From: Escherichia coli
GTDB lineage: Bacteria > Pseudomonadota > Gammaproteobacteria > Enterobacterales > Enterobacteriaceae
DNA: 64,000 nucleotides
Assembly (NCBI RefSeq): GCF_050920415.1
Contig: NZ_CP169309.1
Strand: one strand, 5' to 3'
Shown piece by piece: positions 14,649 to 47,499 of the stretch (its first letter is position 1; every line of letters begins with the position of its first letter). The notes below the pieces were generated by a model, which did not search any database, was not told the DNA's origin, and saw only the letters and a list, made by a program, of their open reading frames with translations. The position numbers were made by a program, and so were the translations under genes.

Positions 14649-14663
14649 TTGACGACTCCTGTC

Positions 14664-16232: not shown

Positions 16233-16568
16233 CATGACTCCTTGCTCATCGCATGAAGACTCCGAGAGTGAACCCCGTTAGAAAGGGTCACACGCATGCC
16301 CCAATACAAAATTATTTGCTCGCCTCTATCGCTGCCTTTTCCTCAAAAGTGGAAAAGACAATGATAAAAAGTTACAAATATGTTAATGAATAAACCAAAT
16401 TGATCCCGTAATTATATTACGCCGCAAAATCCTTACAATAAACAGGTTTTTATTGAGCAAATTTGCATTTTTCGACAGTGATCAATTTATAGCGAAATTG
16501 TCACGACCTCACCAATTTGATCTACGACAATTTATCGTGTTTTGCAGATTTTTTTCAAGAATTAAAAA

Positions 16569-16582
16569 TTGATTTATATCAA
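16569..16582. promoter_or_regulatory. FNR/CRP-family half-site palindrome in the cydA upstream region
   Basis: Perfect TTGAT-TTAT-ATCAA about 335 bp upstream of the cydA start, in a roughly 800-bp AT-rich leader/promoter region. Confidence 0.55.
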
Positions 16583-17035
16583 AACCAATCAAATATGTTA
16601 ATTATGTATAAACCATAGACCATTGGTAATTTTATTGTTAATTTATTGTGAAATATTTATGTAACACAATTATTACAATAAAAAGACATAGATAAAAAAC
16701 CAGTGTTTTATTTAACAGAATCGCCTTATCAACTTTTTATAATACCAATTGATTAGAGTAGCCAATTTGTTGCTATTTTACATAACATATTTTTATCAAA
16801 GTTAATTGATTGTTGCCTTTATGAGCATCGCCGTAAGACCGCCATGTTATTGTTTCATTTGTAATAATCACCAATAAGTATCGATGAGAGAGATATCGCT
16901 TAACAGAGGCGACTGTGTCTGCATGAACACAGGCAACTTTCGCCTGATAAACGAAAAATGAGCGATTTTTGCAAGTTAGTTTTTCTATAGCTGGGTACGC
17001 TGAGCGCCTCGCTTGATTACAATGAGGTTGCTGCC

Positions 17036-17980
17036 ATGGGTCTTGATAATATAGGTTCTGTTGTCAATCGCTTCTCTGGTTGGCCATCAAATGATCCTCT
17101 AAAAACAGATAACGAATCAATGACATCACCCGTGACTGTGCAGGTAATAAAGTTGATTGCCGCCATCCTTGACCCACATCGGATAGTCGTTGGTATCGAT
17201 ACACTCTATACAACGCAGCGCAAAACATTTACCTCAGAGGGTCAACAACTCATTGAATCAGCATTGAAAACACTTAATGTGATGAATTTAAATAACCTGG
17301 AAACAGATCGCGATGAGGAGGGTAACTATCTGGCTTTTGGATATAACGTTGACACTCCTGACAGAATAACCGTTTCTGCTTATAATGAAAAAAAACCTTT
17401 CTGTTATGGCCAATGTCTTTTAATACAGGATGAAGAACCAGATTTATTTAACCTGGTAAAAATTAAAACCTTTGAAGCCAGGCATAATTATGTTTCTAAA
17501 TTGATGAGCGATCCGGAATTTATGTTTAAATTCAGTTATAGCGCCCAACAAAATAGATTAGAACCTCATCTTCTGGTTCCCACTTATTTCCCTCTGAAAA
17601 CAAACCAACCGGTTACGCTAGAGGATTTACTGATACTTTATCGTTTCTTTAAAATGAATGGCGATTTTAATATATTAACATCAGATGAATACATGAGTAT
17701 CATGACACCTCTGATGAAGTGTGAGCGTAGTGTCCACGACCATAACAGGTATGTGACGGGCAAAGATGCTCTTCTTCTGGACAATCCTCCGTCTGGTAAC
17801 CAGATATATTTCCATATTTCCCCTGACGAATCAGCAACACTTGTCCTTTATTTTTCAGACAATAACCTTGAATCCTTCGTCTTTGAAAATGATATTCCGA
17901 GCCAGTATCGACATTTCAAAATGTTTACCAATTTAGCACTAGTTATTGATCAGTTAACCGACGCCAATCAAATACTTTAA
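17036..17980 (+). CDS. Hypothetical protein, 314 aa, acidic, no recognised domain
   Basis: Clean ORF with GAGG RBS 8 nt upstream of the ATG; strongly AT-rich codon usage (N/K/I/F/Y-rich) unlike the flanking core genes; no signal peptide or TM segment evident. Confidence 0.6.
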   Translation: MGLDNIGSVVNRFSGWPSNDPLKTDNESMTSPVTVQVIKLIAAILDPHRIVVGIDTLYTTQRKTFTSEGQQLIESALKTLNVMNLNNLETDRDEEGNYLAFGYNVDTPDRITVSAYNEKKPFCYGQCLLIQDEEPDLFNLVKIKTFEARHNYVSKLMSDPEFMFKFSYSAQQNRLEPHLLVPTYFPLKTNQPVTLEDLLILYRFFKMNGDFNILTSDEYMSIMTPLMKCERSVHDHNRYVTGKDALLLDNPPSGNQIYFHISPDESATLVLYFSDNNLESFVFENDIPSQYRHFKMFTNLALVIDQLTDANQIL

Positions 17981-18059
17981 TTTTCTATACAGCCCTGTGT
18001 AAAATATTGCTAAACAGTGCCCGGGGTTGATTTTTATTCCTCACGGTGATATTTAAATC

Positions 18060-18482
18060 ATGACACCATCTCAGCTCTCTTTTAATACTCTTCCTGTCAA
18101 TGCAACATGCACTTCAGAGATAACAGTAAACACACAAAAATTCTCTGACATCCTCTACTCAGTGGGGTATTCCCTAAAGGATCTGGCTTATCTGAGCAGA
18201 TGTCTGGCATCATTACACCCAACACTCGCCAAAAACATTTATGAAACGGAAAATCTCAGCGATCAAAAATTACTTTATATAGATTGCCGTAGTACAAATG
18301 AAATCAAGATAAATATATTTTTGGGTCAAAAAAGAGAAGAATTAATCGAAATTAGTTCTGATACAGTCATTTTTTCGATACTGTCTTCATTGATTGACTC
18401 AGCTATTTCTGAACATCGACATCAAATCACCGTTAATGATTCAAATAATTCTGAACTATTTTATGAGGATTATACTGATTAA
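18060..18482 (+). CDS. Hypothetical small acidic protein, 140 aa
   Basis: ORF 80 bp downstream of the previous gene, same strand and same AT-rich composition; about 21 acidic versus 10 basic residues; Ser/Thr/Asn-rich N-terminus. Confidence 0.5.
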   Translation: MTPSQLSFNTLPVNATCTSEITVNTQKFSDILYSVGYSLKDLAYLSRCLASLHPTLAKNIYETENLSDQKLLYIDCRSTNEIKINIFLGQKREELIEISSDTVIFSILSSLIDSAISEHRHQITVNDSNNSELFYEDYTD

Positions 18483-19024
18483 ATCCACTCTGTGCGAACC
18501 TGTCCTGCATTTATGCCAGAAGTATTAGAATCTTTGCTTAACGTTACTCATACAGTAGCACCTTCATGTGTCTCTCTTTTTTACGAACAATCAAAAGAAC
18601 TAACAAGGGGCATAATTCGTATAAATTATTAACCATTTGTTATATTCAACATTTTTTTACATTAAGCAGAGATGAATTGCAGTGAAATTCAAGTTAAATT
18701 TTACGAAATGTATTACTCATGGCTAAAAAATCTTCCCAAAATGCAAATTAGAAGTTGATCACAATTATCTCAATCCATCAAATCAAGATAATTTTAAAAA
18801 TTTAACATCAATGACAGCGGTTGGCATAACACACTGAATTAAAATGAAAATTTAAAAAACAATTTTTAAACAATCATTTCCCGAAAGACATTTTGAAAAT
18901 AGATCAATTGCAACATTACGGTCAGATAAAGACACTCCTCTGATATTAAACCTGTGCCGTTATGAACGGCCATAAATACGACGTGTGTAACTTAATTTAC
19001 TCTCTGTCTTACAAAGGATTACCC

Positions 19025-19474
19025 ATGAAGAAAGCAACACTTGTGATTGGCGTTATTGGCGCGGACTGCCATGCAGTAGGCAATAAAGTTCTGGACCGCG
19101 TTTTTAGCAACCATGACTTCAGAGTCATTAATCTGGGCGTAATGGTCAGCCAGGACGAATATATTGATGCTGCCATTGAAACTGGCGCTGACGCGATTGT
19201 CGTCTCCTCTATCTATGGGCATGGCGATATCGACTGTCTGGGCATGCGCGAACGCTGCATTGAGCGTGGCTTGGGGGACATCCTGCTCTATGTGGGCGGC
19301 AACCTGGTGGTCGGAAAACATGACTTCGCTGACGTGGAAACCAAGTTCAAAGAGATGGGATTTGATCGCGTCTTCGCCCCAAGTCATGACTTAGAAGATG
19401 TCTGCCAGCTGATGGCCCACGATATCAACCAACGTCATGGCGTTGAAACTTGCATTCTTGAAGAGGCAATCTGA
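19025..19474 (+). CDS. glmS: Glutamate mutase sigma (S) subunit, B12-binding (methylaspartate mutase small subunit)
   Basis: [24 protein letters not shown]... carries the DxHxxG cobalamin-binding motif and resembles clostridial GlmS/MutS end to end; symbol is glutamate-mutase nomenclature, not GlcN-6-P synthase. The track ORF is extended 21 codons upstream. Confidence 0.85.
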
Positions 19475-20862
19475 TGCAAATCGTCTCTGTCGATATTGGA
19501 TCGACGTGGACCAAAGCAGCCCTCTTCACCCGGGAGGGGGACGCGTTAACGTTGGTTAACCACGTTCTGACCCCAACCACCATCCATCATCTGGCAGAGG
19601 GATTTTTCTCCAGCCTTAACCAGGTGTTAAACGTAGATAATGCCCTCCCCCTGTTAAACCGCGGTGAGGTTGCATTGAAGTATTCCTCTTCTGCCAAAGG
19701 TGGGCTGGCGGTTGCCGCAATGGGAATAGTGCCTTCTATCACTCTGGAAACCGCGAAAGTAACCGCTCACTCTGCAGGTGCTAAAATTGCGCAATATTAC
19801 TCCTACAAGCTGAACCGCCGTGATATCCAGGCACTAGAAGAAACGCAGCCCGATATTCTCTTGTTCACCGGCGGCACCGACGGCGGAGAAGAAAGCTACG
19901 GACTGAATAACGCCCGTGTGCTGGCAGAATCCAAACTCGACTGCGCCATTATTTATGCCGGAAACCGGGATATTCAGGACAAGGTGCAGGAGACCCTCGG
20001 GCATAAAGACCTGACCATCGTCGACAACGTTCTGCCCGATCTTGACCATCCGAACCCTTTAGCTGCACGCCAGGCTATCTGCGACATATTCCTTAAACGC
20101 ATCGTTAAAGGGAAAGGGCTGGATGTCATTGTTGATAAAACAGGCGAAGAACCAATGCCGACACCATGGACGGTCTTTGAACTGGTGAAGGCAATCAGTA
20201 ACGTCGATCACAGCTGGAAAGAGTTCATGCTGATCGACATGGGCGGCGCAACCACCGATGTCTATTCCGCCTGTGCCAACACGCTCTCGCCCGACACTGT
20301 TTTACATGGCGTACCGGAACCCTTCGTAAAACGGACGGTGGAAGGCGATCTGGGAATGCGCGTCTCGGCAATGGTGGTTGGTGAAAGTGCGAAAGAGTTA
20401 GTCAGTGTGAATTTTGCTCAGCAACCCGCACAGTTGGACGCTTTTTATCATTACCTCCGTCATCTAGTCGCTCATCCCGACTACTTACCCGCGAATGCAG
20501 ATGAAAAATATTTCGATACCGTCCTGGCCGGACTGTGTGTGGGTTATGCCACCGAAAGACATGCGGGCACCAAAAAAGAGGTCTGCACCTGCGTCGGCAA
20601 TGTCGATTTACAGATGGGACGTGACCTGACAACCGTGCGTAAAGTCGTGGGTTCCGGCGGATGGCTCTCGCGTGCCAGTCAGTTCGATATGCATCACTGG
20701 TTGAAATACCGCGAGTTAAACGACGACGGTAAACGCATTCTCTTACCGACCGAATTTGAATATTACCGCGATTCCCGGGGGCTATTACCACTGCTGGCAA
20801 ACGTCGCCAGAGTCGATCCGCTGGCCGCCGCGCGCACCAGTATTCAATGCTTAACCCTATAA
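19474..20862 (+). CDS. glmL: Glutamate mutase-associated component L (MutL/GlmL-like, predicted actin/hexokinase-fold ATPase)
   Basis: 462-aa ORF translationally coupled to glmS (TGATG) in the conserved S-L-E order; N-terminal DIGSTWTKAA ATPase-like motif. Confidence 0.7.
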   Translation: MQIVSVDIGSTWTKAALFTREGDALTLVNHVLTPTTIHHLAEGFFSSLNQVLNVDNALPLLNRGEVALKYSSSAKGGLAVAAMGIVPSITLETAKVTAHSAGAKIAQYYSYKLNRRDIQALEETQPDILLFTGGTDGGEESYGLNNARVLAESKLDCAIIYAGNRDIQDKVQETLGHKDLTIVDNVLPDLDHPNPLAARQAICDIFLKRIVKGKGLDVIVDKTGEEPMPTPWTVFELVKAISNVDHSWKEFMLIDMGGATTDVYSACANTLSPDTVLHGVPEPFVKRTVEGDLGMRVSAMVVGESAKELVSVNFAQQPAQLDAFYHYLRHLVAHPDYLPANADEKYFDTVLAGLCVGYATERHAGTKKEVCTCVGNVDLQMGRDLTTVRKVVGSGGWLSRASQFDMHHWLKYRELNDDGKRILLPTEFEYYRDSRGLLPLLANVARVDPLAAARTSIQCLTL

Positions 20863-20880
20863 CAATTAAGGCTGCAATCA

Positions 20881-22326
20881 ATGGAACTTCGAAATAAGAA
20901 ATTAACCCATGACGAATTCATGACCGAGCGGCAACAGGTATTGAAAACCTGGGAAACCGGCAAGGATGTTGAAAACTTTGAAGATGGCGTTAAATACCAA
21001 CAAACCATTCCTGAGCATAAACGCTTCTCTCTTGCCCTGCTGAAAGCAGACAAGGAAGGTAAAACCCTTAGCCAACCGCGCGCAGGCGTGGCGCTGATGG
21101 ACGAACACATCGAACTACTGAAAACACTACAAGAAGAGTGCGATCTGCTGCCGAGCACTATCGATGCATATACCCGTCTGAATCGGTACGAAGAAGCGGC
21201 TGTAGGGATTAAAAAATCCATCGAAGCCGGAACCTCTAAACTGAACGGTTTACCGGTAGTTAACCACGGCGTCGCAGCTTGCCGTCGCCTCACCGAAACT
21301 CTGCAAAAACCGCTACAGATCCGCCACGGCACGCCTGATGCGCGTCTGCTGGCTGAAATCTCGATGGCCAGCGGCTTTACCAGTTATGAAGGCGGCGGCA
21401 TTTCCTACAATATTCCGTATGCCAAGCGCGTAACGCTGGAAAAATCGATCCGCGACTGGCAGTACTGCGATCGTTTAATGGGGATGTATGAAGAACACGG
21501 GATCCGCATCAACCGCGAACCGTTTGGCCCACTAACGGGTACGCTAATCCCGCCGTTTATCTCGCACTCTATCGCAATAATCGAAGGCTTGCTGGCACTG
21601 GAACAGGGTGTGAAGTCTATCACCGTTGGTTATGGTCAGGTCGGTAGCCTGACGCAGGATGTTGCGGCGATCCAGTCTCTGCGGGAACTTGCACACGAAT
21701 ATTTTCAGAGCTATGGCTATACCGACTACGAATTAAGTACCGTGTTTCACCAGTGGATGGGAGGCTTTCCGGAGGACGAATCGAAAGCGTTCGCCATTAT
21801 CTCCTGGGGTGCTGCCGTCGCGGGGATGTCTGGTGCTACCAAAGTCATCACCAAAAGTCCGCACGAAGCCTGGGGCATCCCGACTGCTGCTGCCAACATT
21901 CAGGGGCTAAAAGCCTCCCGCCAGATGCTCAACATGGTCAACGAGCAGAAATTCCCGCCGTGCCCGGCGGTTGAACTAGAAATTGAACTGATTAAGAGCG
22001 AGGTTCGCGCTGTACTGAACAAAGTGTTCGAACTGGGCAATGGTGATATTGCGCGCGGTACGGTGCTGGCATTTGAAGCGGGCGTACTGGATGTGCCGTT
22101 TGCGCCAGCCGCCTGCAACGCAGGCAAAATTCTTCCGGTCCGTGACAACACCGGCGCGATACGCGTACTGGAAGCCGGAGCCGTTCCATTGCCAAAAGAT
22201 ATTCTCGACCTCCACCACGATTACGTTGCTGAACGCGCGCGCTTTGAAGGACGCCAACCGACATTCCAGATGGTTGTAGATGACATCAATGCTGTATCCC
22301 ACAGTAAATTAATAGGAAGACCATAA
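20881..22326 (+). CDS. glmE: Glutamate mutase epsilon (E) catalytic subunit
   Basis: 481 aa; long colinear similarity to clostridial GlmE/MutE (LSQPRAGVAL, PSTIDAYTR, NREPFGPLTGTL, FQMVVDDI...). Confidence 0.88.
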   Translation: MELRNKKLTHDEFMTERQQVLKTWETGKDVENFEDGVKYQQTIPEHKRFSLALLKADKEGKTLSQPRAGVALMDEHIELLKTLQEECDLLPSTIDAYTRLNRYEEAAVGIKKSIEAGTSKLNGLPVVNHGVAACRRLTETLQKPLQIRHGTPDARLLAEISMASGFTSYEGGGISYNIPYAKRVTLEKSIRDWQYCDRLMGMYEEHGIRINREPFGPLTGTLIPPFISHSIAIIEGLLALEQGVKSITVGYGQVGSLTQDVAAIQSLRELAHEYFQSYGYTDYELSTVFHQWMGGFPEDESKAFAIISWGAAVAGMSGATKVITKSPHEAWGIPTAAANIQGLKASRQMLNMVNEQKFPPCPAVELEIELIKSEVRAVLNKVFELGNGDIARGTVLAFEAGVLDVPFAPAACNAGKILPVRDNTGAIRVLEAGAVPLPKDILDLHHDYVAERARFEGRQPTFQMVVDDINAVSHSKLIGRP

Positions 22327-23567
22327 TGAAAATAAAACAGGCCCTTTTTACCGCTGGCTACTCCTCATTCTATTTCGATGATCAGCAGGCGATAAAAAAC
22401 GGAGCGGGTCACGACGGCTTTTTTTATACCGGAGAGCCGGTAACACAGGGGTTTAACGCCGTACGTCAGGCCGGGGAGTGCGTTTCGGTTCAGTTGATTC
22501 TGGAAAACGGTGCGGTCGCCGTAGGCGACTGTGCTGCCGTACAGTATTCCGGGGCAGGCGGTCGCGATCCACTGTTCCTCGCAGAGCACTTTATTCCGTT
22601 CCTCAACGACCATATCAAGCCATTACTGGTAGGCCGCGATGTGGATGCTTTCCTGCCGAATGCCCGTTTCTTCGACAAATTGCGTATTGACGGAAACTTG
22701 CTGCATACCGCCGTACGTTATGGATTATCACAGGCGCTGCTTGATGCTACCGCGCTGGCAACCGGCCGTCTAAAAACTGAAGTGGTCTGTGATGAATGGC
22801 AGTTGCCACGCGTGGCGGAATCCATTCCATTATTTGGTCAGAGCGGAGACGATCGATATATCGCTGTCGATAAGATGATCCTTAAGGGCATCGACGTGCT
22901 ACCTCATGCGCTGATTAATAACGTCGAAGAGAAACTGGGCTTTAAAGGAGAAAAACTGCGCGAATATGTCCGTTGGCTATCCGATCGGATTCTAAGCAAA
23001 CGCACCAGCGCACGCTACCACCCTACCCTACACATCGATGTATACGGCACTATTGGTCTGATCTTCGATATGGATCCGCTTCGCTGTGCGCAATACATCG
23101 CCAGTCTGGAAAAAGAGGCGCAAGGCCTGCCGCTCTACATTGAGGGGCCGGTCGATGCCGGTAACAAGCCCGATCAAATCCGCCTGCTGACCGCGATTAC
23201 CAAAGAGCTGACGCGCCTCGGTTCCGGCGTGAAAATTGTGGCCGATGAATGGTGTAACACCTACCAGGATATTGTTGATTTCACTGATGCCGCCAGTTGC
23301 CACATGGTGCAAATCAAAACCCCGGATCTGGGCAGTATTCACAACATCGTCGATGCAGTTCTTTATTGCAACAGCCACAGCATGGAAGCGTACCAGGGCG
23401 GCACCTGCAATGAAACCGATGTCAGCGCCCGCACGTGTGTCCACGTCGCCCTTGCCGCTCGCCCCATGCGTATGCTGGTAAAACCGGGGATGGGCTTTGA
23501 CGAAGGCCTCGATATCGTCTTCAACGAAATGAATCGTACTATCGCGCTGTTGCAGGCTAAGGATTAA
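22326..23567 (+). CDS. mal: 3-methylaspartate ammonia-lyase (beta-methylaspartase)
   Basis: 413-aa enolase-superfamily protein of typical MAL length; start overlaps the glmE stop (TAATG). Confidence 0.85.
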   Translation: MKIKQALFTAGYSSFYFDDQQAIKNGAGHDGFFYTGEPVTQGFNAVRQAGECVSVQLILENGAVAVGDCAAVQYSGAGGRDPLFLAEHFIPFLNDHIKPLLVGRDVDAFLPNARFFDKLRIDGNLLHTAVRYGLSQALLDATALATGRLKTEVVCDEWQLPRVAESIPLFGQSGDDRYIAVDKMILKGIDVLPHALINNVEEKLGFKGEKLREYVRWLSDRILSKRTSARYHPTLHIDVYGTIGLIFDMDPLRCAQYIASLEKEAQGLPLYIEGPVDAGNKPDQIRLLTAITKELTRLGSGVKIVADEWCNTYQDIVDFTDAASCHMVQIKTPDLGSIHNIVDAVLYCNSHSMEAYQGGTCNETDVSARTCVHVALAARPMRMLVKPGMGFDEGLDIVFNEMNRTIALLQAKD

Positions 23568-23570
23568 CAA

Positions 23571-24941
23571 ATGGCTCGTTCTTTTAAAGTCTTATCGCCA
23601 ACGGCAATCCTCGGGTATGGATTCCCGGAAGAGAGCTTCCGCAAAGCGATGGCAGAATCGCCCGATCTGATCGCCGTTGATGCAGGATCTTCCGATCCAG
23701 GTCCCCACTACCTCGGGGCAGGCAAACCGTTTACCGATCGCGCAGGGGTCAAGCGCGATCTGCGCTATATGATCACCGCAGGCGTGCAAAATAATATACC
23801 GGTGGTGATCGGAACGGCCGGCGGTTCTGGTGCCGCTCCACACCTGGAGTGGTGCCGAGAAATAATTCATGAGATTGCCCGGGAAGAGCGCCTCGCGTTC
23901 TCGATGGCGCTGATCCCGGCAGACGTTGACAAAGCCATCGTCCACCAGGCGCTGGATAACGGCAAAATCACGGCGCTGGATTTTGTCCCGCCGTTAACCC
24001 ACGACTCGATTGACGAAAGTACGTATATCGTCGCGCAAATGGGCATCGAACCCTTCCAGCGGGCGCTGAAAGAAGGAGCGCAAGTGGTGCTGGGCGGGCG
24101 CGCTTACGACCCGGCCTGCTTTGCTGCGCTTCCGATCATGCAAGGCTTTGATGAAGGTCTGGCACTGCATTGTGGGAAAATCCTTGAATGTGCGGCAATC
24201 GCTGCAACACCCGGCTCAGGCTCTGACTGTGCGATGGGCATCATTGATGACAACGGCTTTACGCTGAAGACGTTTAATCCGAAGCGTAAATTTACCGAAA
24301 CGTCAGCTGCTGCACACACACTGTATGAGAAATCCGATCCCTACTTTCTGCCAGGACCTGGCGGCGTGCTAAACCTGAAAGGTTGCACATTTAAAGCGAT
24401 CAATGATGGCGAAGTGTACGTCAGCGGTTCTAAGCATGAAGAAACGCCCTATGCCCTGAAACTGGAAGGTGCGCGGCGGGTGGGTTTCCGCTGTTTGACC
24501 ATCGCCGGAACGCGCGACCCGATCATGATCGCCGGGATCGATAACATCATCGATGAAGTCAAAACCAGCGTTTCGCGTAATCTGTCCTTAGACGATGACA
24601 GCATTCGCATCAATTTCCACCTGTACGGCAAAAACGGGGTGATGGGTGACCATGAACCGATGCAAACTGCCGGGCATGAGCTGGGGATTGTCCTTGATGT
24701 AGTTGCACCGACCCAGGAAATTGCCAACAGCGTTTGCTCGCTGGTGCGCTCTACCATGCTGCACTACGGCTATGAAAACCGCATCGCTACCGCAGGCAAC
24801 CTGGCGTTCCCGTTCTCCCCTTCTGATATCCAGGGCGGGCCGGTATACGAATTTTCCATATATCACCTGATTGAAGCCAACGACGCTCTGCGTTTTGATT
24901 TCCATATTGAACAGGTGACGCCAGAAGGAGTTCAGGCATGA
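23571..24941 (+). CDS. Uncharacterised protein, probably DUF1446 (AtuA-like) family
   Basis: 456-aa soluble protein inside the operon, 4 bp after mal; family assignment is from memory of the AtuA-like family and is tentative. Confidence 0.5.
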   Translation: MARSFKVLSPTAILGYGFPEESFRKAMAESPDLIAVDAGSSDPGPHYLGAGKPFTDRAGVKRDLRYMITAGVQNNIPVVIGTAGGSGAAPHLEWCREIIHEIAREERLAFSMALIPADVDKAIVHQALDNGKITALDFVPPLTHDSIDESTYIVAQMGIEPFQRALKEGAQVVLGGRAYDPACFAALPIMQGFDEGLALHCGKILECAAIAATPGSGSDCAMGIIDDNGFTLKTFNPKRKFTETSAAAHTLYEKSDPYFLPGPGGVLNLKGCTFKAINDGEVYVSGSKHEETPYALKLEGARRVGFRCLTIAGTRDPIMIAGIDNIIDEVKTSVSRNLSLDDDSIRINFHLYGKNGVMGDHEPMQTAGHELGIVLDVVAPTQEIANSVCSLVRSTMLHYGYENRIATAGNLAFPFSPSDIQGGPVYEFSIYHLIEANDALRFDFHIEQVTPEGVQA

Positions 24942-25255
24942 AACAGTCAATTGTCTCACTGGCGCAAGTCATTCGTTCGAAAAATGCCGGACCTTACGAA
25001 CTGGTTTTAGATATTTTATTTAAAACGAAAGAAAACTATGAGCGAGTAAAATCATCAGGGCAATTAACCCCAGAACTGATTGCGCGCTTATATCATGTTG
25101 AACCTGACTTTATTCATCGTATTGTCTGGTTTGATCCTTCTAACGCAGTAAAAATTGTCATGCCACGAGATATTATCTCCGGGAATGTAGGTGACAATGA
25201 TGTCTATGGCGCACAGCAACATGCACCTTTATTAAATATGAGTTTCGATTTGTAA
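24938..25255 (+). CDS. Small uncharacterised protein, probably DUF4387-like partner of the preceding gene
   Basis: 105-aa ORF overlapping the upstream stop by 4 nt (ATGA coupling). Confidence 0.5.
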   Translation: MKQSIVSLAQVIRSKNAGPYELVLDILFKTKENYERVKSSGQLTPELIARLYHVEPDFIHRIVWFDPSNAVKIVMPRDIISGNVGDNDVYGAQQHAPLLNMSFDL

Positions 25256-25341
25256 AAATCCGAACACTTTTAGCCAACTGACATCCCGTCACTTATTGCA
25301 GCTCAACACTTCAGCTATTTGTAAGGTTGTTATAGCAGGTA

Positions 25342-25367
25342 GATGCCTGAATCTCTATTCAGGCATC
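25342..25367 (+). promoter_or_regulatory. Perfect 11-bp inverted repeat (stem-loop or operator) between the DUF4387-like gene and the transporter gene
   Basis: gatgcctgaat-ctct-attcaggcatc; no downstream T-run, so not a classic intrinsic terminator. Confidence 0.4.
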
Positions 25368-25415
25368 CACTTCTCCTGATTCTGATTTATCGCCGTGCAC
25401 CTGATGGAGGAAAAA

Positions 25416-26696
25416 ATGAAGAAAATAAGTTTAACTACGATGATTCTTTTGGCGCTGGTACTTGGAATGATTATCGGCGTAGTGCTCAATAACACTGCTT
25501 CACCGGAAACAGCAAAACTCTATGCGCAAGAAATATCGATATTCACGACGATTTTCTTACGACTGATAAAAATGATTATCGCTCCGTTAGTGGTCTCTAC
25601 CCTGGTGGTAGGTATTGCTAAAATGGGCGATGCCAAAGCCCTTGGTCGTATTTTTTCTAAAACACTCTTTTTATTTATTTGCGCCTCATTGCTGTCAATT
25701 GCCTTAGGCTTGATAACGGTAAATTTCTTCATGCCAGGCACAGGAATTAATTTTGTTGCACACGGTGCCGAAACCACCGGAGTGGTCGCGTCAGAACCCT
25801 TTACACTAAAAGTATTTATTTCGCATGCTTTCCCCACCAGCATTGTCGATGCCATGGCGCACAATGAAATTTTGCAAATCGTGGTGTTCTCAATTTTCCT
25901 CGGCTGTAGCCTGACGGCGATTGGTGAGAAAGGCAGCGCCATCGTTCACGCCTTAGATTCGCTGGCACATGCCATGTTAAAGCTCACTGGCTACGTCATG
26001 CTCTTCGCTCCCCTGACCGTATTCGCCGCTATTTCAGCATTGATTGCTGAACGAGGACTGGCAGTTATGGTGAGCGCCGGGATCTTTATGGGTGAATTTT
26101 ATTTCACCATGTTATTACTTTGGGTGCTGCTTATCGGTCTGGCCATCGTTTATGTCGGCCCCTGCATCAGACGCCTGACCCGCGCCCTTTCAGAACCCGC
26201 CCTGCTGGCATTTACCACATCCAGTTCTGAAGCTGCTTTTCCGGGAACGCTTGAAAAACTGGAGCAATTTGGCGTTTCCCCCAAAATTGCCAGCTTTGTC
26301 TTACCCATTGGCTACTCATTTAATCTCGTTGGATCAATGGCCTACTGCTCCTTCGCCACAGTTTTCATCGCCCAGGCCTGCAATATCCATTTATCCATCG
26401 GTGAGCAAATCACCATGCTGTTGATCCTGATGTTGACCTCGAAAGGAATGGCTGGCGTACCACGCGCCTCAATGGTGGTTATCGCCGCCACGCTCAACCA
26501 GTTCAATATTCCGGAAGCGGGGCTGATCTTGCTGATGGGCGTTGATCCGTTCCTTGATATGGGGCGTTCCGCGACAAACGTCATGAGCAACGCAATGGGC
26601 GCTGCGATGGTGAGTCGGTGGGAAGGCGAACATTTCGGCGAGGGTTGTCGGGGTAAAGCATTAAAACCCAATGAATCGAACGTTGCTCTGCCCTGA
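25416..26696 (+). CDS. Dicarboxylate/amino acid:cation symporter (DAACS/GltP-DctA family)
   Basis: Polytopic membrane protein with an AFTTSSSEAAFP motif typical of the family; GGAGG RBS 5 nt before ATG 25416; the track ORF starts at an upstream GTG. Confidence 0.8.
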   Translation: MKKISLTTMILLALVLGMIIGVVLNNTASPETAKLYAQEISIFTTIFLRLIKMIIAPLVVSTLVVGIAKMGDAKALGRIFSKTLFLFICASLLSIALGLITVNFFMPGTGINFVAHGAETTGVVASEPFTLKVFISHAFPTSIVDAMAHNEILQIVVFSIFLGCSLTAIGEKGSAIVHALDSLAHAMLKLTGYVMLFAPLTVFAAISALIAERGLAVMVSAGIFMGEFYFTMLLLWVLLIGLAIVYVGPCIRRLTRALSEPALLAFTTSSSEAAFPGTLEKLEQFGVSPKIASFVLPIGYSFNLVGSMAYCSFATVFIAQACNIHLSIGEQITMLLILMLTSKGMAGVPRASMVVIAATLNQFNIPEAGLILLMGVDPFLDMGRSATNVMSNAMGAAMVSRWEGEHFGEGCRGKALKPNESNVALP

Positions 26697-26803
26697 GGGG
26701 GATCTTAAGCAATCAGAAGCCAATGACTACGCATTTTTATAAGCCGGATCATGAAGTTAGACGGCAATTAAGTAACACTAACGTTTAAGGTGAAAAGTGA
26801 AAT

Positions 26804-28456
26804 ATGTCCAAACCATTTATCTGGCAAGAACCGTTTCTACAAAATAAAGACGGTACAGAATATACATTAATTAGCGATCAACATATTACAGTAACGGAAT
26901 TAGACGGCGAAGAAGTGATAAAAATCGCTCCTGAAGCATTAACGCTGCTTGCCCGGCAGGCATTTTATGAAGCCTCTTTTTTCTTACGTTCCGCTCATTT
27001 GCAACAGGTCGCCAGCATTCTTAGCGATCCGCAGGCCAGTAGTAATGATAAATACGTTGCGTTGCAGTTATTACGTAATGCTGAAGTCTCAGCAAAAGGG
27101 GTATTACCCAACTGTCAGGATACCGGCACCGCAACTATTGTTGCCAGTAAAGGGCAACAGATATGGACGGGAGGTAACGACGCTGAAGCCTTAAGCAAAG
27201 GCATTTACAGTACTTTCCAGGAAAATAATCTGCGCTTTTCACAAAATGCGCCGCTGGATATGTATACCGAAGTCAATACGCAAACCAATCTCCCGGCGCA
27301 GATTGATATCAGCGCTGTCGCTGGTAATGAGTACCATTTTCTCTGTGTTAATAAAGGGGGCGGCTCCGCCAATAAAGCCGCGCTTTATCAGGAAACCAAA
27401 TCCTTATTGCAACCAGAAAAACTGACCGCGTTTTTAATCGACAAAATGAAATCGTTGGGCACGGCCGCCTGCCCGCCCTACCACATCGCCTTTGTCATCG
27501 GAGGGCTTTCAGCCGATCAAACCTTAAAAGTTGCCAAGCTGGCCTCTACGAAATATTACGACAATTTGCCCACCAGCGGAAACGAGCAGGGACAAGCATT
27601 CCGTGATATTGAGCTGGAAAAAGCGTTGCTCGAAGCCAGTCAGCAATTTGGTATTGGTGCGCAATTTGGGGGTAAATATTTCGCTCATGATATTCGCGTC
27701 ATTCGTCTGCCGCGTCACGGTGGCTCTTGCCCGATAGCTATGGCGCTCTCCTGTTCTGCCGATCGCAATATCAAAGCAAAAATTAACAAGCACGGTATCT
27801 GGCTGGAAAAACTCGAACACAATCCGGGGCAATATATTCCAGCCTCATTGCGGGAAGAAAATCACGCGCAACATGTACACCTGGATCTAAACCGTCCGTT
27901 GCGTGACGTGATGCAGGATCTCGCCAGATTACCGGTAGGTACCCGCGTGTCGTTAAGTGGTCCCATCGTAGTGGCGCGCGATATCGCCCACGCAAAAATA
28001 AAAGCGCGGCTGGATAGCGGCGAATCGATGCCGGATTACCTGAAGCATCATATTGTCTATTACGCTGGCCCGGCGAAAACACCGGAGAACATGGCCTGCG
28101 GTTCACTGGGTCCAACCACGGGCGGTCGAATGGACGGTTATGTCGAAACCTTCCAGGCGGCTGGCGGCAGTCTGGTAATGTTATCGAAAGGTAACCGCAG
28201 CCAGCAGGTCACCGATGCCTGTCACAAACATGGCGGCTTCAATCTGGGAAGTATTGGCGGTGCAGCTGCGTTACTGGCGCAAGAATATGTCAAAAGTCTG
28301 CGTTGCCTGGAATACCCGGAGCTGGGTATGGAGGCGGTGTGGATGATGGAAGTGGAAAATCTGCCCGCATTCATCCTGGTCGATGATAAAGGCAATAATT
28401 TCTTTAGTCAGTTTGAGCAGCAACACCGCTGCGCCAGTTGCCCTGCGGGACATTAA
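26804..28456 (+). CDS. fumD: Class I (Fe-S) fumarate hydratase paralogue, mesaconase-type
   Basis: 550 aa, colinear with FumA/FumB ([45 protein letters not shown]); the fumD name is by analogy to the O157:H7 mesaconase, as I recall it. Confidence 0.8.
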
Positions 28457-28465
28457 GGAAAATGA

Positions 28466-29068
28466 ATGGAAGCGCGAATTTCAACTGAACGGCATGTGCA
28501 GCGCCAGCAGAAATTGAAGGAACAGGTCGATACGCGCGTCGCGGCGGCGATAGAGAAAAAAGGGATCTTGATTGTTTTCACCGGCAACGGCAAAGGGAAA
28601 TCCACTGCCGCGTTTGGTACTGTGACGCGCGCGGTGGGTCATGGCAAAACGGTGGGGGTTGCACAGTACATCAAGGGGCAATGGGACAACGGCGAATACA
28701 ACCTTCTCCAGCCGCTGGGGGTTGAGTTTCATATTATGGGAACCGGTTTTACCTGGGAGACTCAGAACCGGCAAGCGGATATCGATGCGGCGAAAGAGGT
28801 CTGGTCGGAAAGCAAACGGATGCTGGCTGACAAGCGTTACGACTTAGTGGTGCTTGATGAGCTCACCTATATGCTGGCTTACCATTATCTGGATACAGAA
28901 GAAGTGATCACTTCTCTGCAAAACCGTCCGGCACAACAAAGTGTCATTGTCACCGGACGCGGTTGCCACAGTCAGATATTAAAAATGGCGGATACGGTAA
29001 GTGAAATCCGCCCCGTCAAACATGCTTTTGATAACGGCATTCAGGCCCAGCCGGGGATCGACTGGTAA
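28466..29068 (+). CDS. Cob(I)alamin adenosyltransferase (CobA/BtuR family) paralogue
   Basis: 200 aa with P-loop VFTGNGKGKST; colinear with E. coli BtuR. Confidence 0.85.
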   Translation: MEARISTERHVQRQQKLKEQVDTRVAAAIEKKGILIVFTGNGKGKSTAAFGTVTRAVGHGKTVGVAQYIKGQWDNGEYNLLQPLGVEFHIMGTGFTWETQNRQADIDAAKEVWSESKRMLADKRYDLVVLDELTYMLAYHYLDTEEVITSLQNRPAQQSVIVTGRGCHSQILKMADTVSEIRPVKHAFDNGIQAQPGIDW

Positions 29069-29071
29069 TAA

Positions 29072-29105
29072 CTGCGCCTGGCATCCCGCCAGGCGCAGGT
29101 TTTAC
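29072..29105. terminator. Bidirectional hairpin terminator between the cobA-like and LysR genes
   Basis: ctgcgcctgg-catcccg-ccaggcgcag with flanking T/A runs; lies between convergent stop codons. Confidence 0.6.
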
Positions 29106-30007
29106 ATCTCCTGCGGTACGACCGATTTCGCCAGCAACCATTCACGAAATTGCTGCAAGTGCGGAGAGTCAGACTTCTCTTCCTGCCACGTCATAATAAA
29201 ACGATTACCGGTACGAATAGGCACATCACAGGGGATCACCATATCGCCACTATCCAAATCATGTTGAATAGCGAACCGTGGTAACAGCGCCACGCCGAGA
29301 TTAGAGCGCACGGCGGCAATCAGCATTGAAAGCAAATCGAAACGTGGTCCGTTATTGACCAGCGGACTGCTAACGCCAGATAAAGCAAACCACTCTTCCC
29401 AGCCAGTAATACGGGTGCTTTGATGCAGAAGTGGTAACTCAGTAAGCAGTTCTGCCACTGACAGTTTTTGATCGGACATTGCAAGCAAACTGCCGCTGCA
29501 TACCGGCAAAATCTCCTCTTCAAAGAGATATTCTACTTCCGCCCAGGGCGCGCAAAAATTTTCGCGCATAATGACAGCATCGTACTCCCGATTAAGAAAA
29601 TCGCCGTTATTAGCTAAAGAATGAATATTAACAATAATATCGGGATGTAACTTTGTGAATTCATGTAAATTTGGGATTAACCAGTGGGTACTAAACGTAG
29701 GATTAACGGCAAGTTCAATAACCTGAACCGTAGGCTGCCAGGTCATAATCGTATTGGTATCGCGTTCCAGCTTATTTAATGTTTCTTTTACTATCCCCAG
29801 GTAATACTTCCCTGCATCATTAAGAAAAATGCGTTTTTTAGAGTGTGAAAATAACGGAGTATGTAAAAATTCCTCCAGCGCACTTACTTGTCTGAATACA
29901 GCACTTTGGGTTAACGCTAACTCCTCAGCCGCTCTGGTATAACTTTCATGTCGTGCGACGACCTCAAAAGTCACCAGCAGCTCCGTTTTAGGTATTTTTC
30001 CTCGCAT
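29102..30007 (-). CDS. LysR-family transcriptional regulator
   Basis: N-terminal helix-turn-helix (YTRAAEELALTQSAVFRQV) plus co-inducer-binding domain; start chosen at the internal Met (MRGKIP...), the track ORF extends to 30037. Confidence 0.8.
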   Translation of the reverse strand: MRGKIPKTELLVTFEVVARHESYTRAAEELALTQSAVFRQVSALEEFLHTPLFSHSKKRIFLNDAGKYYLGIVKETLNKLERDTNTIMTWQPTVQVIELAVNPTFSTHWLIPNLHEFTKLHPDIIVNIHSLANNGDFLNREYDAVIMRENFCAPWAEVEYLFEEEILPVCSGSLLAMSDQKLSVAELLTELPLLHQSTRITGWEEWFALSGVSSPLVNNGPRFDLLSMLIAAVRSNLGVALLPRFAIQHDLDSGDMVIPCDVPIRTGNRFIMTWQEEKSDSPHLQQFREWLLAKSVVPQEM

Positions 30008-30596
30008 AATGCCGTCCGTGAAAAAATAACAACTCAAAAATTATTTTATAAAAAACAGTAGCACTAATGAATATCATAATTCAAATAAACAAACCAGTCA
30101 GCTATATGTCTAACCAGGAAAATAAAGTGACAATAATCCTAAAACAGGAATTTCACCTCAGTTATCCGCATGCAATACTTTAAAGCTATTATTGCAAGAA
30201 TATTATTCATATACATGAATATACTCTAAATAAGTCAAGTTGCAGGAAGGGAACAAATAATGAATTTCCAGAAGCTTACATAAGTAAGTGACCTGGGTGA
30301 GCGAACATCGATGCAGCACATGCAACTTGAATTATGACAAGTATACAATGATAAATTTATATACCCTATGTTATATATTATCTATGTCCGGTTAAATTGA
30401 ATGAGTCATAGCCTTAAAAGACTTCACAAAAGATAATTCCTCTTTAACAATAAGCCAGATTTACCACTTGTAAAACTTGCTATCGCCACATACACTACGC
30501 GCGTTTTCTTTCCCTTTTGCTGGCTGCTGACCGGAAAGACAAAATTACCCTCGCAATACAGGGGGTTGTTTAACGTCTATATTTCAGGACAGCGTT

Positions 30597-31994
30597 ATGC
30601 ATCATCTTTTAAGGCTTGATAAAGCCTTTCTGCGCAAAGGGATCCAACTTTCCCGTGCCAACAATATTGTTTCATTATGTCGTCCATCAGGAGCCAGTGC
30701 CCGCGTACTGCTGCCGGACGAACTGCCGCTGGAAGAAAAAGCAGTGACACAACTGCTTGATTTTGCAGAAGTGAAGATACCAGGCCATCCAGGTTACGTA
30801 CGCCAGACGTGCGCGACGCCAGATTTTCATCCCGGCAATGGCGTCCCCGTTGGCGCGGTGGTGGCCTCAACGCCGGATTTAGTCATTCCCGCCGCCATCG
30901 GCACCGATATTTCTTGTGGCATGCGGCTGCTGACGACCGGATTAACACTTGAGCAAGCCGAAGCGCATAAAGACGTCATCGCTCAGCGGTTAACGCAAGT
31001 GCTACTGCAAAATGAGCGCGATGTTCCGTTATCCGCACAGGCGTTCACCGCGCTTTTTGATGGCGGACCGGCAGATTGCGTGTCGACCTTGCCATCAGCA
31101 GGTCTCTGGACACGCACGAATATCCCCCGAATGGTACAAGAGATTGACCGCTGCATTGGGCTTAACGAGCATAACAGTCATTCGCGTTATGCCCCACCCG
31201 CCCTGCTGGCAACGGACCGCGCATTACTCCGCGATCCTTGTCTGGGTACGCCGGGTTCAGGTAATCATTTTATTGAACTTCAGGTCGTTGATAGCGTGGT
31301 TGATCGCCATGTAGCCTGGCAACAAGGGCTGAAAACAGGCGATATTGTGGTGATGATCCACAGTGGATCGCGAGATGTTGGCTTTTACGTCGGAAGACGC
31401 TGGATGGATCGCGCCCGTGCTGAATGGCCCACCGGACATAAACATCCACAAAGCGGGTTATATGGTCTGGCAGGCGGACTGGCGGAGGAATATCTACAAG
31501 CGATAGGAATGGCGGCGCGTTACGCGTGGTTAAATCGCGTGACAATTGCCGAAATGGTGCGCGTATGTCTTGCCAATCTCTTTCATCAGGACAATTCGCA
31601 TCTGGTGGTGGATGTGCCACATAACATCATCCTTCGCGAGCATGAAATGAATATTCATCGCAAAGGCGCAACACCGGCACGAGTGGGCAATCTGGCGTTA
31701 ATCCCTGGTTCAATGGGCGATTATTCGTGGCTTGCGGTAGGTTGCGGCAACCCGGAGTGGCTGTGGTCATGCAGTCACGGAGCAGGACGCAGCCAGCGTC
31801 GGCAGGCCATGCGCTCACGCGCGACTGAAGAGTCAACGCTGCCGTGGCAATGCGTCACATTGCGCGAAGAACGACGTCTTGAAGAAGCGCCAGCGGCTTA
31901 TAAAGATATTGGTCCGGTTATCGAAGCTCAACAAGAAGCCGGATTAATTCAGCCAGCGGTCAGATTTCGACCGTGGTTAACGTTTAAAGCATAA
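30597..31994 (+). CDS. RtcB-family RNA ligase paralogue (3'-phosphate/5'-OH ligase)
   Basis: 465 aa with the RtcB signature blocks IPAAIGTDISCGMRL, GSGNHFIEL, MIHSGSRDVG, IPGSMGDYS and CSHGAGR; about 30-aa N-terminal extension relative to K-12 RtcB. Confidence 0.8.
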   Translation: MHHLLRLDKAFLRKGIQLSRANNIVSLCRPSGASARVLLPDELPLEEKAVTQLLDFAEVKIPGHPGYVRQTCATPDFHPGNGVPVGAVVASTPDLVIPAAIGTDISCGMRLLTTGLTLEQAEAHKDVIAQRLTQVLLQNERDVPLSAQAFTALFDGGPADCVSTLPSAGLWTRTNIPRMVQEIDRCIGLNEHNSHSRYAPPALLATDRALLRDPCLGTPGSGNHFIELQVVDSVVDRHVAWQQGLKTGDIVVMIHSGSRDVGFYVGRRWMDRARAEWPTGHKHPQSGLYGLAGGLAEEYLQAIGMAARYAWLNRVTIAEMVRVCLANLFHQDNSHLVVDVPHNIILREHEMNIHRKGATPARVGNLALIPGSMGDYSWLAVGCGNPEWLWSCSHGAGRSQRRQAMRSRATEESTLPWQCVTLREERRLEEAPAAYKDIGPVIEAQQEAGLIQPAVRFRPWLTFKA

Positions 31995-32091
31995 AAAAGG
32001 CCATCATATGATGGCCAACCATGTCGAAACCGACAGCCCTTCGCCATTCCTGTAGAGGGAAGCGGCGAGGGCTATTTCTTATTACAAGTAT
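31993..32091 (-). ncRNA. sdhX: 3'-UTR-derived sRNA SdhX (RybD) with the sucD terminator
   Basis: About 97 nt directly after the sucD stop, ending in the ggccatcat-atgatggcc hairpin plus U-run (31993-32016); assigned from position relative to sucD, sequence identity to K-12 not verified. Confidence 0.45.
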
Positions 32092-32961
32092 TTATTTCAG
32101 AACAGTTTTCAGAGCTTCACCGATGTCAGCCAGGCTGCGAACGGTTTTCACGCCTGCGGCTTCCAGAGCAGCGAATTTCTCATCCGCAGTCCCTTTCCCA
32201 CCGGCAATGATGGCACCCGCGTGGCCCATACGTTTGCCTTTCGGCGCAGTTACACCAGCGATGTAACCTACAACTGGCTTGGTAACGTGCTCTTTGATGT
32301 ACGCAGCCGCTTCTTCTTCAGCGCTACCGCCGATCTCACCGATCATCACGATCGCTTCGGTCTGCGGATCTTTTTCGAACATTTCGAGGATGTCGATAAA
32401 GTTAGAACCAGGGATCGGGTCGCCGCCGATACCGACACAGGTCGACTGACCGAAACCGTAATCCGTGGTCTGTTTAACCGCTTCATAGGTCAGTGTACCG
32501 GAACGGGAAACGATACCCACTTTACCCGGTTTGTGAATGTGACCAGGCTGGATGCCGATTTTACATTCACCCGGAGTGATAACGCCCGGGCAGTTCGGGC
32601 CGATCATGCGTACGCCAGCTTCGTCCAGTTTCACTTTCACCGTCAGCATATCCAGCGTCGGGATGCCTTCAGTGATGGTGATAATCAGTTTGATACCTGC
32701 GTCGATGGCTTCCAGAATGGAGTCTTTGCAGAACGGAGCCGGTACGTAGATAACAGAAGCGGTAGCGCCAGTGGCAGCAACGGCTTCACGCACGGTGTTG
32801 AACACCGGCAGACCAAGGTGGGTAGTACCGCCTTTACCTGGGGTTACGCCGCCAACCATTTTAGTGCCGTATGCAATGGCCTGTTCAGAGTGGAAAGTCC
32901 CCTGGCTACCAGTAAAGCCCTGGCAGATAACCTTGGTGTTTTTATCAATTAAAATGGACAT
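32092..32961 (-). CDS. sucD: Succinyl-CoA synthetase alpha subunit
   Basis: 289-aa match to SucD. Confidence 0.95.
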
Positions 32962-44869: not shown

Positions 44870-44918
44870 GCGTTATTGGGCGGCATCACTGCCGCCTTTC
44901 TTAAAATATTTATCTGGT

Positions 44919-45431: not shown

Positions 45432-45532
45432 TGTCAGCGCCAATGATATAAGACAGTAATTCACCATTTGGATTGTCCGCTCCACCCAACATGTTGTTTC
45501 CTTAAGGTTCCTACACCACAAAGGGAACACTC

Positions 45533-46700: not shown

Positions 46701-47499
<799 letters not shown>

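Follow-up and report, generated by a model that had tools for sequence, protein, structure and literature searches.

In 2015 Kronen & Berg described a gene cluster for glutamate fermentation that Escherichia coli O157:H7 shares with other Enterobacteriaceae (PMC4682846). FumD from this cluster was assayed in that work and shown to prefer mesaconate; no function was given for the DUF1446/DUF4387 genes. In the one O157:H7 strain tried, neither methylaspartase activity nor glutamate-dependent anaerobic growth was seen, and extracts of citrate, acetate or propionate cultures had no citramalate lyase activity, the cluster not being expressed in the assayed cells (PMC4682846). The same chemistry is carried out by the clostridial methylaspartate operon (C. 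tetanomorphum / C. tetani type), in which the mesaconase is the two-subunit MesAB, citramalate is cleaved by a CitDEF-type acyl-carrier-protein complex and the regulator is of the GntR type. The haloarchaeal methylaspartate cycle likewise uses glutamate mutase and methylaspartase, but it serves acetate assimilation and passes through mesaconyl-CoA by means of a CoA-transferase and a hydratase. In E. coli K-12 the chromosomal interval concerned, from the sucD hairpin to the 5' region of cydA, is taken up by genes of unrelated function, mngB-mngA-mngR, for a 2-O-alpha-mannosyl-D-glycerate PTS and hydrolase.

The stretch of E. coli DNA analysed here (64 kb; “the window”) is 100% identical to strain MFDS1022581; gene content and coordinates agree with the RefSeq annotation of that strain and with the list of open reading frames. 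Between cydA (14664-16235, minus strand) and sucD (32092-32961, minus strand) lie glmS-glmL-glmE-mal, cmlA, cmlB, a DAACS transporter gene, fumD, cobO, lysR and an rtcB-family gene. From the orphan ORFs at the left edge through lysR these are the same genes in the same order as in O157:H7, also between cydA and sucD, and the encoded proteins are 97-100% identical, save those of the orphan ORFs at only 84-86%. The cluster is therefore already known and is no new kind of system; the analysis corrects its annotation and makes its evolutionary history clearer. Taken together, the evidence makes us confident that the interval is the enterobacterial methylaspartate-pathway cluster, apparently complete for glutamate breakdown, and that it has long occupied the gap between cydA and sucD, as one of several alleles found there.

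The genes for the first two enzymes are tightly packed on the plus strand. GlmS (19025-19474), the B12-binding sigma subunit of glutamate (methylaspartate) mutase, matches the NF002612 and TIGR01501 equivalogs and carries the base-off/His-on motif DxHxxG as D14-C-H16-A-V-G19. It overlaps by 1 nt with glmL (mutL; 19474-20862), whose product, the accessory or reactivating protein of the mutase, scores 505.7 bits against the NF040745 equivalog (cutoff 475). GlmE (20881-22326), the catalytic epsilon subunit, scores 865 bits with TIGR01503, and alignment to the 6H9E and 1CCW chains shows that the motifs QPRAG, DAYTR, RHGTPD and EGGGISYNxPY are all conserved; we take these to hold the equivalents of R66, R100, R149, E171 and Y181 of the C. 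cochlearium enzyme, that is, the substrate-binding arginines and Glu171/Tyr181. After a further overlap of 1 nt comes mal (22326-23567), encoding 3-methylaspartate ammonia-lyase (TIGR01502), which matches PDB 1KKO over its full length and keeps Q73, Q172, H194, D238, E273, D307, Q329, K331, T360, C361 and L384; the Mg2+ ligands D238/E273/D307 and the bases K331/H194 have the same numbering as in 1KCZ/1KKO. An earlier note, made from the sequence of the window, had proposed a B12-dependent cluster for glutamate catabolism, and the NCBIfam equivalogs found for GlmS, GlmL, GlmE, Mal and FumD bear this out, as does the presence of every catalytic residue of glutamate mutase and methylaspartase that was examined. 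It is also clear that the note was right about gene order, since glmS-glmL-glmE-mal is the order in clostridial operons (Firmicutes loci L061 and L065).

The two genes that follow, which the note could leave only as unassigned, are indeed present, and are now predicted to encode a two-subunit citramalate lyase, CmlAB. The gene cmlA (23571-24941, plus strand), 3 nt beyond mal, specifies a large subunit of the AtuA/DUF1446 family (PF07287) and overlaps by 4 nt with cmlB (24938-25255, plus strand), which specifies a small DUF4387 subunit (PF14330). The products match PDB 9ERQ_A, named “Citramalate lyase, subunit A (cmlA)” (E 5.6e-293), and 9ERQ_B, named “subunit B (cmlB)” (E 5.2e-57), and each aligns collinearly with its 9ERQ/9EVF chain from end to end (456 and 105 aa; about 92% identity). 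9ERQ/9EVF and the Raoultella planticola enzyme share this two-gene arrangement, and a preprint in which Raoultella planticola CmlAB was used gives pyruvate and acetate as the products (bioRxiv 10.64898/2026.01.16.699985). Because literature searches found no primary paper on CmlAB, the lyase assignment rests on the PDB molecule names and this one preprint; by homology, the protein of the window would cleave citramalate to pyruvate and acetate.

Next on the plus strand is the gene for a dicarboxylate/amino acid:cation symporter of the DAACS family (25416-26696), scoring 302 bits as GltP, the name given to it by Kronen & Berg (PMC4682846), and 312 bits as DctA, both under the cutoffs. It is presumed to import glutamate. 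FumD (26804-28456, plus strand) is a class I fumarase/mesaconase that scores 1273.8 bits with the NF011921 equivalog (cutoff 1060) and shares 98% identity with the O157:H7 allele whose product was assayed, and it is predicted to act as a mesaconase, converting mesaconate to (S)-citramalate. After a gap of 9 nt follows cobO (28466-29068, plus strand), encoding a cob(I)alamin/cob(I)yrinic acid a,c-diamide adenosyltransferase (equivalog-level match to TIGR00708, 246 bits against a cutoff of 167.75). A strong, terminator-like hairpin (29072..29098; 11 bp stem with 9 GC pairs) separates cobO from the convergent lysR (29102-30007, minus strand), a GcvA-like gene which reaches 221 bits with the GcvA subfamily model NF008352, under its cutoff of 288. 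The LysR protein, whose gene adjoins cobO in other genera too, likely regulates the cluster. No B12 riboswitch was seen, since scanning 15800-32500 with Rfam at E<=1 gave no hit, and a consensus search found no FNR site upstream of glmS. Compared with the clostridial operon, the cluster of the window thus has a single-chain mesaconase, FumD, in place of MesAB, CmlAB in place of the CitDEF-type complex and a LysR in place of a GntR regulator, and it has, unlike that operon, a built-in transporter and adenosyltransferase. The mesaconyl-CoA genes of the haloarchaeal cycle are absent from the window.

In the route that these genes would form, glutamate would be imported by the DAACS symporter and rearranged to (2S,3S)-3-methylaspartate by the adenosyl-B12-dependent GlmS/GlmE, which GlmL would keep active, with CobO forming the adenosyl-B12 cofactor from salvaged corrinoid; Mal would then deaminate methylaspartate to mesaconate, FumD would hydrate mesaconate to (S)-citramalate and CmlAB would split citramalate into pyruvate and acetate. 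The note had followed the route as far as citramalate, and the enzymes for that part are present; because the two unassigned genes match CmlA and CmlB, the cluster encodes, on paper, every step by which glutamate would become pyruvate, acetate and ammonia. Gene identities, catalytic residues, synteny and close homology to assayed or solved proteins are shown directly; we infer flux through the route, the substrate of the transporter, the target of the regulator and physiological use in E. coli. The note had also called the pathway characterised in O157:H7. It was described there (PMC4682846; also the locus of O157:H7 strain Z1832), but of its enzymes only FumD was assayed, and neither expression nor growth on glutamate was obtained.

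These published results admit a different function, first raised by Kronen & Berg (PMC4682846): the cluster may not be catabolic, with mesaconate or (S)-citramalate being instead its end product, for example as a secreted metabolite that affects the host. The O157:H7 extracts lacked citramalate lyase activity, and the fate of citramalate was open in 2015 (PMC4682846). However, the assays of that year used cells that did not express the cluster, cmlAB adjoins mal in the same operon and accompanies glmSLE-mal across phyla, and CmlAB matches solved structures that bear the name citramalate lyase, with pyruvate and acetate as the reported products; an end-product role is consequently quite unlikely. 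Somewhat less improbable, though still unlikely, is that the cluster is in E. coli a silent, decaying relic without present function. Conditions for its expression were not found for O157:H7 (PMC4682846), the 540 bp before glmS are AT-rich (30% GC), the neighbouring hut and rtcB genes are decayed in most carriers, and gltP and cobO have been lost in some relatives within Escherichia (L036, L050). Against decay, none of the ten core genes is disrupted in the alleles examined, dN/dS is far below 1, catalytic residues are conserved, and at least 80% of glmE-cmlA is kept in 1121 genomes. Purifying selection is clear relative to the O157-type allele, with dN 0.001 and dS 0.15 for glmE and dN 0.002 and dS 0.17 for mal.

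Alignment to K-12 placed the limits of the interval. The note had stated that the cluster sits in place of mngRAB, and indeed K-12 holds mngB-mngA-mngR between the same flanks and has no DNA matching 16607-31987 of the window. To the left, the window is identical to K-12 only as far as about 16307, which is some 70 bp before the start codon (ATG) of cydA. To the right, the junction is sharp and, as the note had it, just past the sucD terminator: it falls at about 31992, at the hairpin GGCCATCATATGATGGCC, around 75 nt beyond the sucD stop, and is common to all alleles of the interval, which converge on this sucD-side terminator-like hairpin (31999..32016, minus strand). The flanks themselves, at about 96% identity to K-12, had been considered as a sign of a local recombination tract; this was rejected, since identity to K-12 is 93.6-98.2% throughout the 64-kb window, the strain being simply a divergent one.

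A recent genomic island, inserted into an mng-type E. coli ancestor by a mobile element or by site-specific integration, is a rival explanation, and the patchy occurrence of the cluster (21% of complete E. coli genomes) and the AT-rich edges at both ends would fit with it. The searches for the machinery of such an event were empty, as the note had also observed: no tRNA to serve as an attachment site lies in the 10-40 kb part of the window, no integrase or transposase is found among the ORFs of at least 80 aa in 16236-32016, each of which is accounted for, and no convincing flanking repeats are present, those seen being at most 26 nt, imperfect and at chance level, and the only one that spans the borders being inverted. 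The latter, a 19-nt repeat linking 17077-17095, in the orphan ORF hypA, to 32003-32021, in the sucD hairpin, was considered as an att-like scar and rejected as probably due to chance; its left arm is only 16/19 in common alleles and its right arm is simply the sucD terminator, conserved in many genera. Furthermore, the composition of the cluster is not atypical as that of an island would be: the GC of the core genes (0.49-0.55) is host-like beside flanks at 0.53-0.55 and a window average of 0.50, and the AT-rich parts of the interval are solely the edge ORFs, cmlB and the spacers.

The cluster also fills the gap from cydA to sucD in Klebsiella, Citrobacter, Salmonella arizonae/diarizonae and other Escherichia, and at least 5 genera share this position. 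Its dS between genera is 1.1 to more than 3, which is saturated, against 0.45-0.8 for the flanks, and outgroup Escherichia have the island-type cydA upstream region rather than that of K-12. Because of this shared position and the saturated synonymous divergence, the cluster is an old resident locus, and recent insertion is very improbable. The age is drawn from synteny and dS rather than from a dated phylogeny, and genera may also have exchanged the cluster long ago by recombination in the conserved flanks. More widely, the six-gene core glmSLE-mal-cmlAB is conserved across Proteobacteria, Firmicutes and Dictyoglomaceae. Among complete E. coli genomes, the cluster is found in 1121 of 5426 (a carrier being a genome that holds at least 80% of glmE-cmlA) and mngAB in 3880 of 5426; the alleles that alternate in the interval are the glm cluster, mngRAB or a TPR gene. 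The cluster would be an old occupant that strains have probably exchanged or lost through homologous recombination within the conserved cyd/suc flanks. Allelic replacement, preferred in the note to site-specific integration, is thus upheld in that there is no integrase or tRNA, but the cluster appears as the old resident allele and not as the incoming DNA.

The gene list given in the note stands. The edges of the interval were added to later, within Escherichia, by hypA/hypB, the hut operon and rtcB. The two left-hand ORFs are AT-rich, as the note had remarked: hypA (17036-17980, plus strand; 314 aa) has a GC of 0.38 and hypB (18060-18482, plus strand; 140 aa) of 0.34. Neither has a family match in Pfam, NCBIfam or PADLOC. 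Homologues of hypA were found in Escherichia only; it is intact, and comparison with other alleles in E. coli gives dN/dS values of 0.37 (0.29-0.35 for hypB), and an AF2 model from a 6-sequence alignment was unusable (pLDDT 48.6).

To the right of lysR is an AT-rich spacer of 463 bp (30026..30488) specific to the sub-allele of the window (144 genomes), which holds an ERIC-like repeat at about 30220-30345 (inverted repeat I2; the ERIC2 primer matches with 2 mismatches, where 0 matches are expected by chance); in other strains an 8.6-kb hut operon replaces it. Beyond it a stand-alone gene for an rtcB-family RNA ligase (30597-31994, plus strand) is intact, whereas local BLAST against the O157-type allele finds there only pieces of rtcB and of a HAL gene. 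The PF01139 domain covers residues 63-464, full length, and the motifs TDISCG, GSGNHF, IHSGSR, PHN and SHGAGR are visible in the translation; presumably these are the metal-binding Cys/His residues and the nucleotidylated His motif, which places the protein in the RtcB family. Its scores are under the NF007153 and TIGR03073 cutoffs, outside the curated subfamilies (the rtcBA/RtcR and PrfH-linked types), and no rtcA, rtcR or prfH partner lies near it. Homologues in Pseudomonas and Ralstonia are likewise solitary, and no functional link was found via their neighbours. The gene is full length in 289 of the roughly 1121 carriers, decayed in O157:H7, and is an edge addition outside the pathway.

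At the cydA side the alleles differ in the upstream, regulatory region itself (16308..17035 in the window). Past the left junction, identity to K-12 drops to about 79% over some 375 bp, beyond which homology is lost; a perfect match to the FNR consensus lies at 16569-16582. Around 3178 genomes have the K-12 type of upstream region, to which mngRAB is tied, and around 2245 that of the window, with hardly any intermediates. The two haplotypes, about 80% identical, are as distant as those of different genera, and the K-12 type varies so little (at least 99% identity in all carriers) as to be nearly clonal, which suggests an import that spread recently. It is possible, and we put it forward only tentatively, that recombination has long maintained a polymorphism at sucD-cydA, with the metabolic cargo tied to either of two sharply distinct cydA regulatory haplotypes. 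If the haplotypes drive expression of cytochrome bd-I differently, carriers of the glutamate cluster would regulate respiration, too, in another way than K-12.

Around one fifth of E. coli, O157:H7 included, would thus have the genes to convert glutamate to pyruvate, acetate and ammonia, given B12. Histidine could enter the same route where the hut operon is present, and both amino acids are plausible nutrients in the gut. Naming the two former DUF genes as a putative citramalate lyase closes the gap left in 2015 and so makes the pathway testable from end to end.

The interval between cydA (14664-16235, minus strand) and sucD (32092-32961, minus strand) was laid out from the ORF list of the window and from the annotation of the E. 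coli strain MFDS1022581 chromosome, which is 100% identical to positions 14000-34000. Two AT-rich hypothetical genes, here called hypA (17036-17980) and hypB (18060-18482), are followed on the same plus strand by glmS (19025-19474), glmL (19474-20862), glmE (20881-22326), mal (22326-23567), an AtuA-family gene (cmlA, 23571-24941), a DUF4387 gene (cmlB, 24938-25255), a dicarboxylate/amino acid:cation symporter gene (gltP, 25416-26696), a class I fumarate hydratase gene of the FumD type (26804-28456) and the adenosyltransferase gene cobO (28466-29068). A LysR gene (29102-30007, minus strand) is convergent with cobO, with a strong hairpin between the two, and an RtcB-family gene (30597-31994, plus strand) completes the interval. 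This is the inventory given in an earlier note on this DNA, and the coordinates agree with it also where start and stop codons overlap or abut. The K-12 interval contains mngB-mngA-mngR, and window positions 16607-31987 have no match in K-12 DNA; the cluster here stands in place of mngRAB, as had been proposed.

NCBIfam equivalog models are satisfied by GlmS, GlmL, GlmE, Mal, the FumD-type fumarase and the adenosyltransferase. The glm and mal ORFs had been read as glutamate mutase and methylaspartase, and the catalytic residues are indeed present in GlmS, GlmE and Mal: GlmS has D14-x-H16-x-x-G19, GlmE retains all of the QPRAG, DAYTR, RHGTPD and EGGGISYNxPY motifs, and Mal retains Q73, Q172, H194, D238, E273, D307, Q329, K331, T360, C361 and L384 (numbering of the solved enzymes). 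For the two genes previously left unassigned, Pfam confirmed AtuA (PF07287) and DUF4387 (PF14330), and both proteins match PDB entries 9ERQ/9EVF over their full length at around 92% identity, the first to chain A, ‘Citramalate lyase, subunit A (cmlA)’ (E 5.6e-293), and the second to chain B, ‘subunit B (cmlB)’ (E 5.2e-57). On the evidence of these PDB and Pfam matches, the cluster would encode the whole route from glutamate via methylaspartate, mesaconate and (S)-citramalate to pyruvate and acetate. A literature search found no primary paper on CmlAB.

Kronen & Berg 2015 (PMC4682846) reported that 26.5% of E. coli strains, and 90.6% of those of O157:H7, carry the cluster, and showed that FumD prefers mesaconate; the function of the DUF1446 gene downstream of mal was unknown to them, and in their view it was unclear what becomes of (S)-citramalate. 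The glutamate cluster is real and its earlier interpretation mainly correct; it had, however, been published already, and the one gap left in the published pathway has since been filled by others. The six genes glmSLE-mal-cmlAB form a conserved block in Enterobacterales, Aromatoleum/Azoarcus, Telmatospirillum, Desulfotomaculum, Clostridiales MAGs and Dictyoglomaceae. Upstream of glmS, neither a B12 riboswitch nor an FNR site was found. The GC content of cmlB (24938-25255) is 0.39 and that of the adjacent genes 0.55; across the enterobacterial loci sampled, cmlB is 10-16 points lower than the genes beside it, except in Escherichia sp. ESNIH1 (around 9 points). The Aromatoleum, Telmatospirillum, Desulfotomaculum and Clostridiales copies show no such difference, or one of no more than 6 points.

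At the right border, five interval alleles (the window, K-12, the O157 type, the type carrying the histidine-utilisation operon, hut, and a B2 strain that has just a TPR gene) converge at around 31992, at the hairpin GGCCATCATATGATGGCC, around 75 nt beyond the sucD stop; this hairpin 3' of sucD is also kept in Citrobacter and Klebsiella. At the left border the window and K-12 are the same up to around 16307, a position about 70 bp 5' of the cydA start codon; identity is then around 79% across around 375 bp, a stretch with well-conserved blocks, one of which has a perfect FNR consensus, and beyond this the sequences are unrelated. The interval contains no tRNA and no convincing flanking repeats, and neither the ORF list nor the annotation shows a recombinase ORF in it; the GC content of the core (0.49-0.55) is like that of the flanks. 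A 19-nt inverted repeat (17077-17095 and 32003-32021, 18/19 complementary) brackets the cluster from the start of hypA to the sucD terminator hairpin; it is weaker (16/19) in common alleles and is probably due to chance.

Scanning one genome per species with CmlA gave 61 loci, onto which the window proteins were mapped. In Klebsiella michiganensis and K. grimontii the locus includes both flanks and places the cluster between cydA and sucD. Salmonella enterica subsp. arizonae, Pseudescherichia vulneris, Escherichia whittamii, other non-coli Escherichia and many species of Citrobacter have it in this position too. For K. oxytoca and K. spallanzanii the fetched stretch takes in the cydA flank but not that of sucD, and for S. 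enterica subsp. diarizonae the sucD flank but not that of cydA. Measured against the copies in Salmonella, Citrobacter and Klebsiella, the window's cluster has a saturated dS (1.1 to >3), compared to 0.45-0.8 for cydAB and sucCD; there is accordingly no sign of a recent inter-genus transfer. Among E. coli, cluster and flanks differ little in dS (0.03-0.17). Older recombinational exchange between genera via the conserved flanks may nevertheless have occurred; the Escherichia genome MOD1-EC7003 carries a mosaic copy, with dS of 1.3-1.7 in its right half against 0.3-0.9 in its left half. The simplest reading is that the cluster is an old resident locus, repeatedly lost or replaced. The earlier preference for homologous recombination over site-specific integration stands, but not its implied direction: given the same position in other genera and the saturated dS, the glm cluster is no newcomer in an mng-type site. 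Klebsiella and Citrobacter loci (L010, L016-L018, L021, L056 and others among those fetched) have around 1.1 kb more than E. coli between the transporter gene and fumD; the extra DNA is probably the glutaminase gene shown in Kronen & Berg's drawing. Both gltP and cobO are missing from E. whittamii and Escherichia sp. E1V33.

The newest element of the findings concerns the cydA regulatory region (window 16308-16700; 3305-3700 of the K-12 locus, L002), which in E. coli comes in two clearly separate types that go together with the interval alleles. The K-12 type, in around 3178 genomes, is nearly clonal, with mutual identity of at least 99%; the window type, in around 2245 genomes, is 90-100% identical and is common to B2 strains, E. 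whittamii and other non-coli Escherichia. The two types share around 80% identity with hardly any intermediates, a distance equal to that of either to Salmonella, Citrobacter or Klebsiella.

No family match was found for hypA or hypB, nor any homologue outside Escherichia, and the loci of Klebsiella, Citrobacter and Salmonella lack both. They are intact in E. coli (dN/dS around 0.3-0.37) and pseudogenes in one relative; the AF2 model of hypA was too poor for use. This segment (17036-18482) evolves at a much higher rate than the remainder of the cluster: the DNA of most E. coli copies is only 80-90% identical to the window, compared with 95-99% in the core. The RtcB protein contains the full RtcB domain and shows the expected motifs, yet falls under the curated subfamily cutoffs, and no link to glutamate catabolism was seen. 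Its closest relatives outside Escherichia (60-67% identity) are encoded by solitary genes in Pseudomonas and Burkholderiales. No enterobacterial relatives occur from 82% down to 67% identity and the next-closest proteins are from Pseudomonas, Chitinivorax, Variovorax, Ralstonia and Burkholderia, a pattern that points to acquisition of rtcB from outside the Enterobacteriaceae. The lysR-rtcB spacer contains an ERIC-like (enterobacterial repetitive intergenic consensus) element (30220-30345), with a match to the ERIC2 primer sequence at 30282-30303 (2 mismatches) flanked by 25-nt inverted arms. Elsewhere in the window, an IS21-family element absent from K-12 (45431-47557; istA and a frameshifted istB) splits the fimbrial usher gene ybgQ into pieces at 44841-45446 and 47652-49508.

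Alleles were counted in 5426 complete E. coli genomes, a genome being scored if it held at least 80% of the query. The core glmE-cmlA was present in 1121 and the two left ORFs in 1134, mngAB in 3880 and full-length rtcB in 289; 144 carry a hut operon between lysR and rtcB, and 144 have in its place the 463-bp spacer of the window. The source strain stands out by its divergence: blocks of the window match K-12 at 93.6-98.2% identity, and no more than 2 of the 5426 genomes reach at least 99% identity over 14000-34000. The O157:H7 allele retains fragments of a histidine ammonia-lyase (HAL) gene and of rtcB, and therefore derives by deletion from the form with hut and rtcB. A divergent Escherichia assembly (L072) lacks the glutamate cluster; from cydA to sucD it has a 62% hypA homologue, what is left of hypB, a short piece of the hutU-rtcB spacer and an unrelated gene of 258 aa, and so appears to be a further product of deletion. 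In strain 806883-9-2019 (L004:17286-25027) the hut operon consists of hutU, a permease gene, a hutD-like gene, hutI, hutG and a HAL-family lyase gene; it directly adjoins the glutamate cluster, so that histidine could feed the glutamate route.
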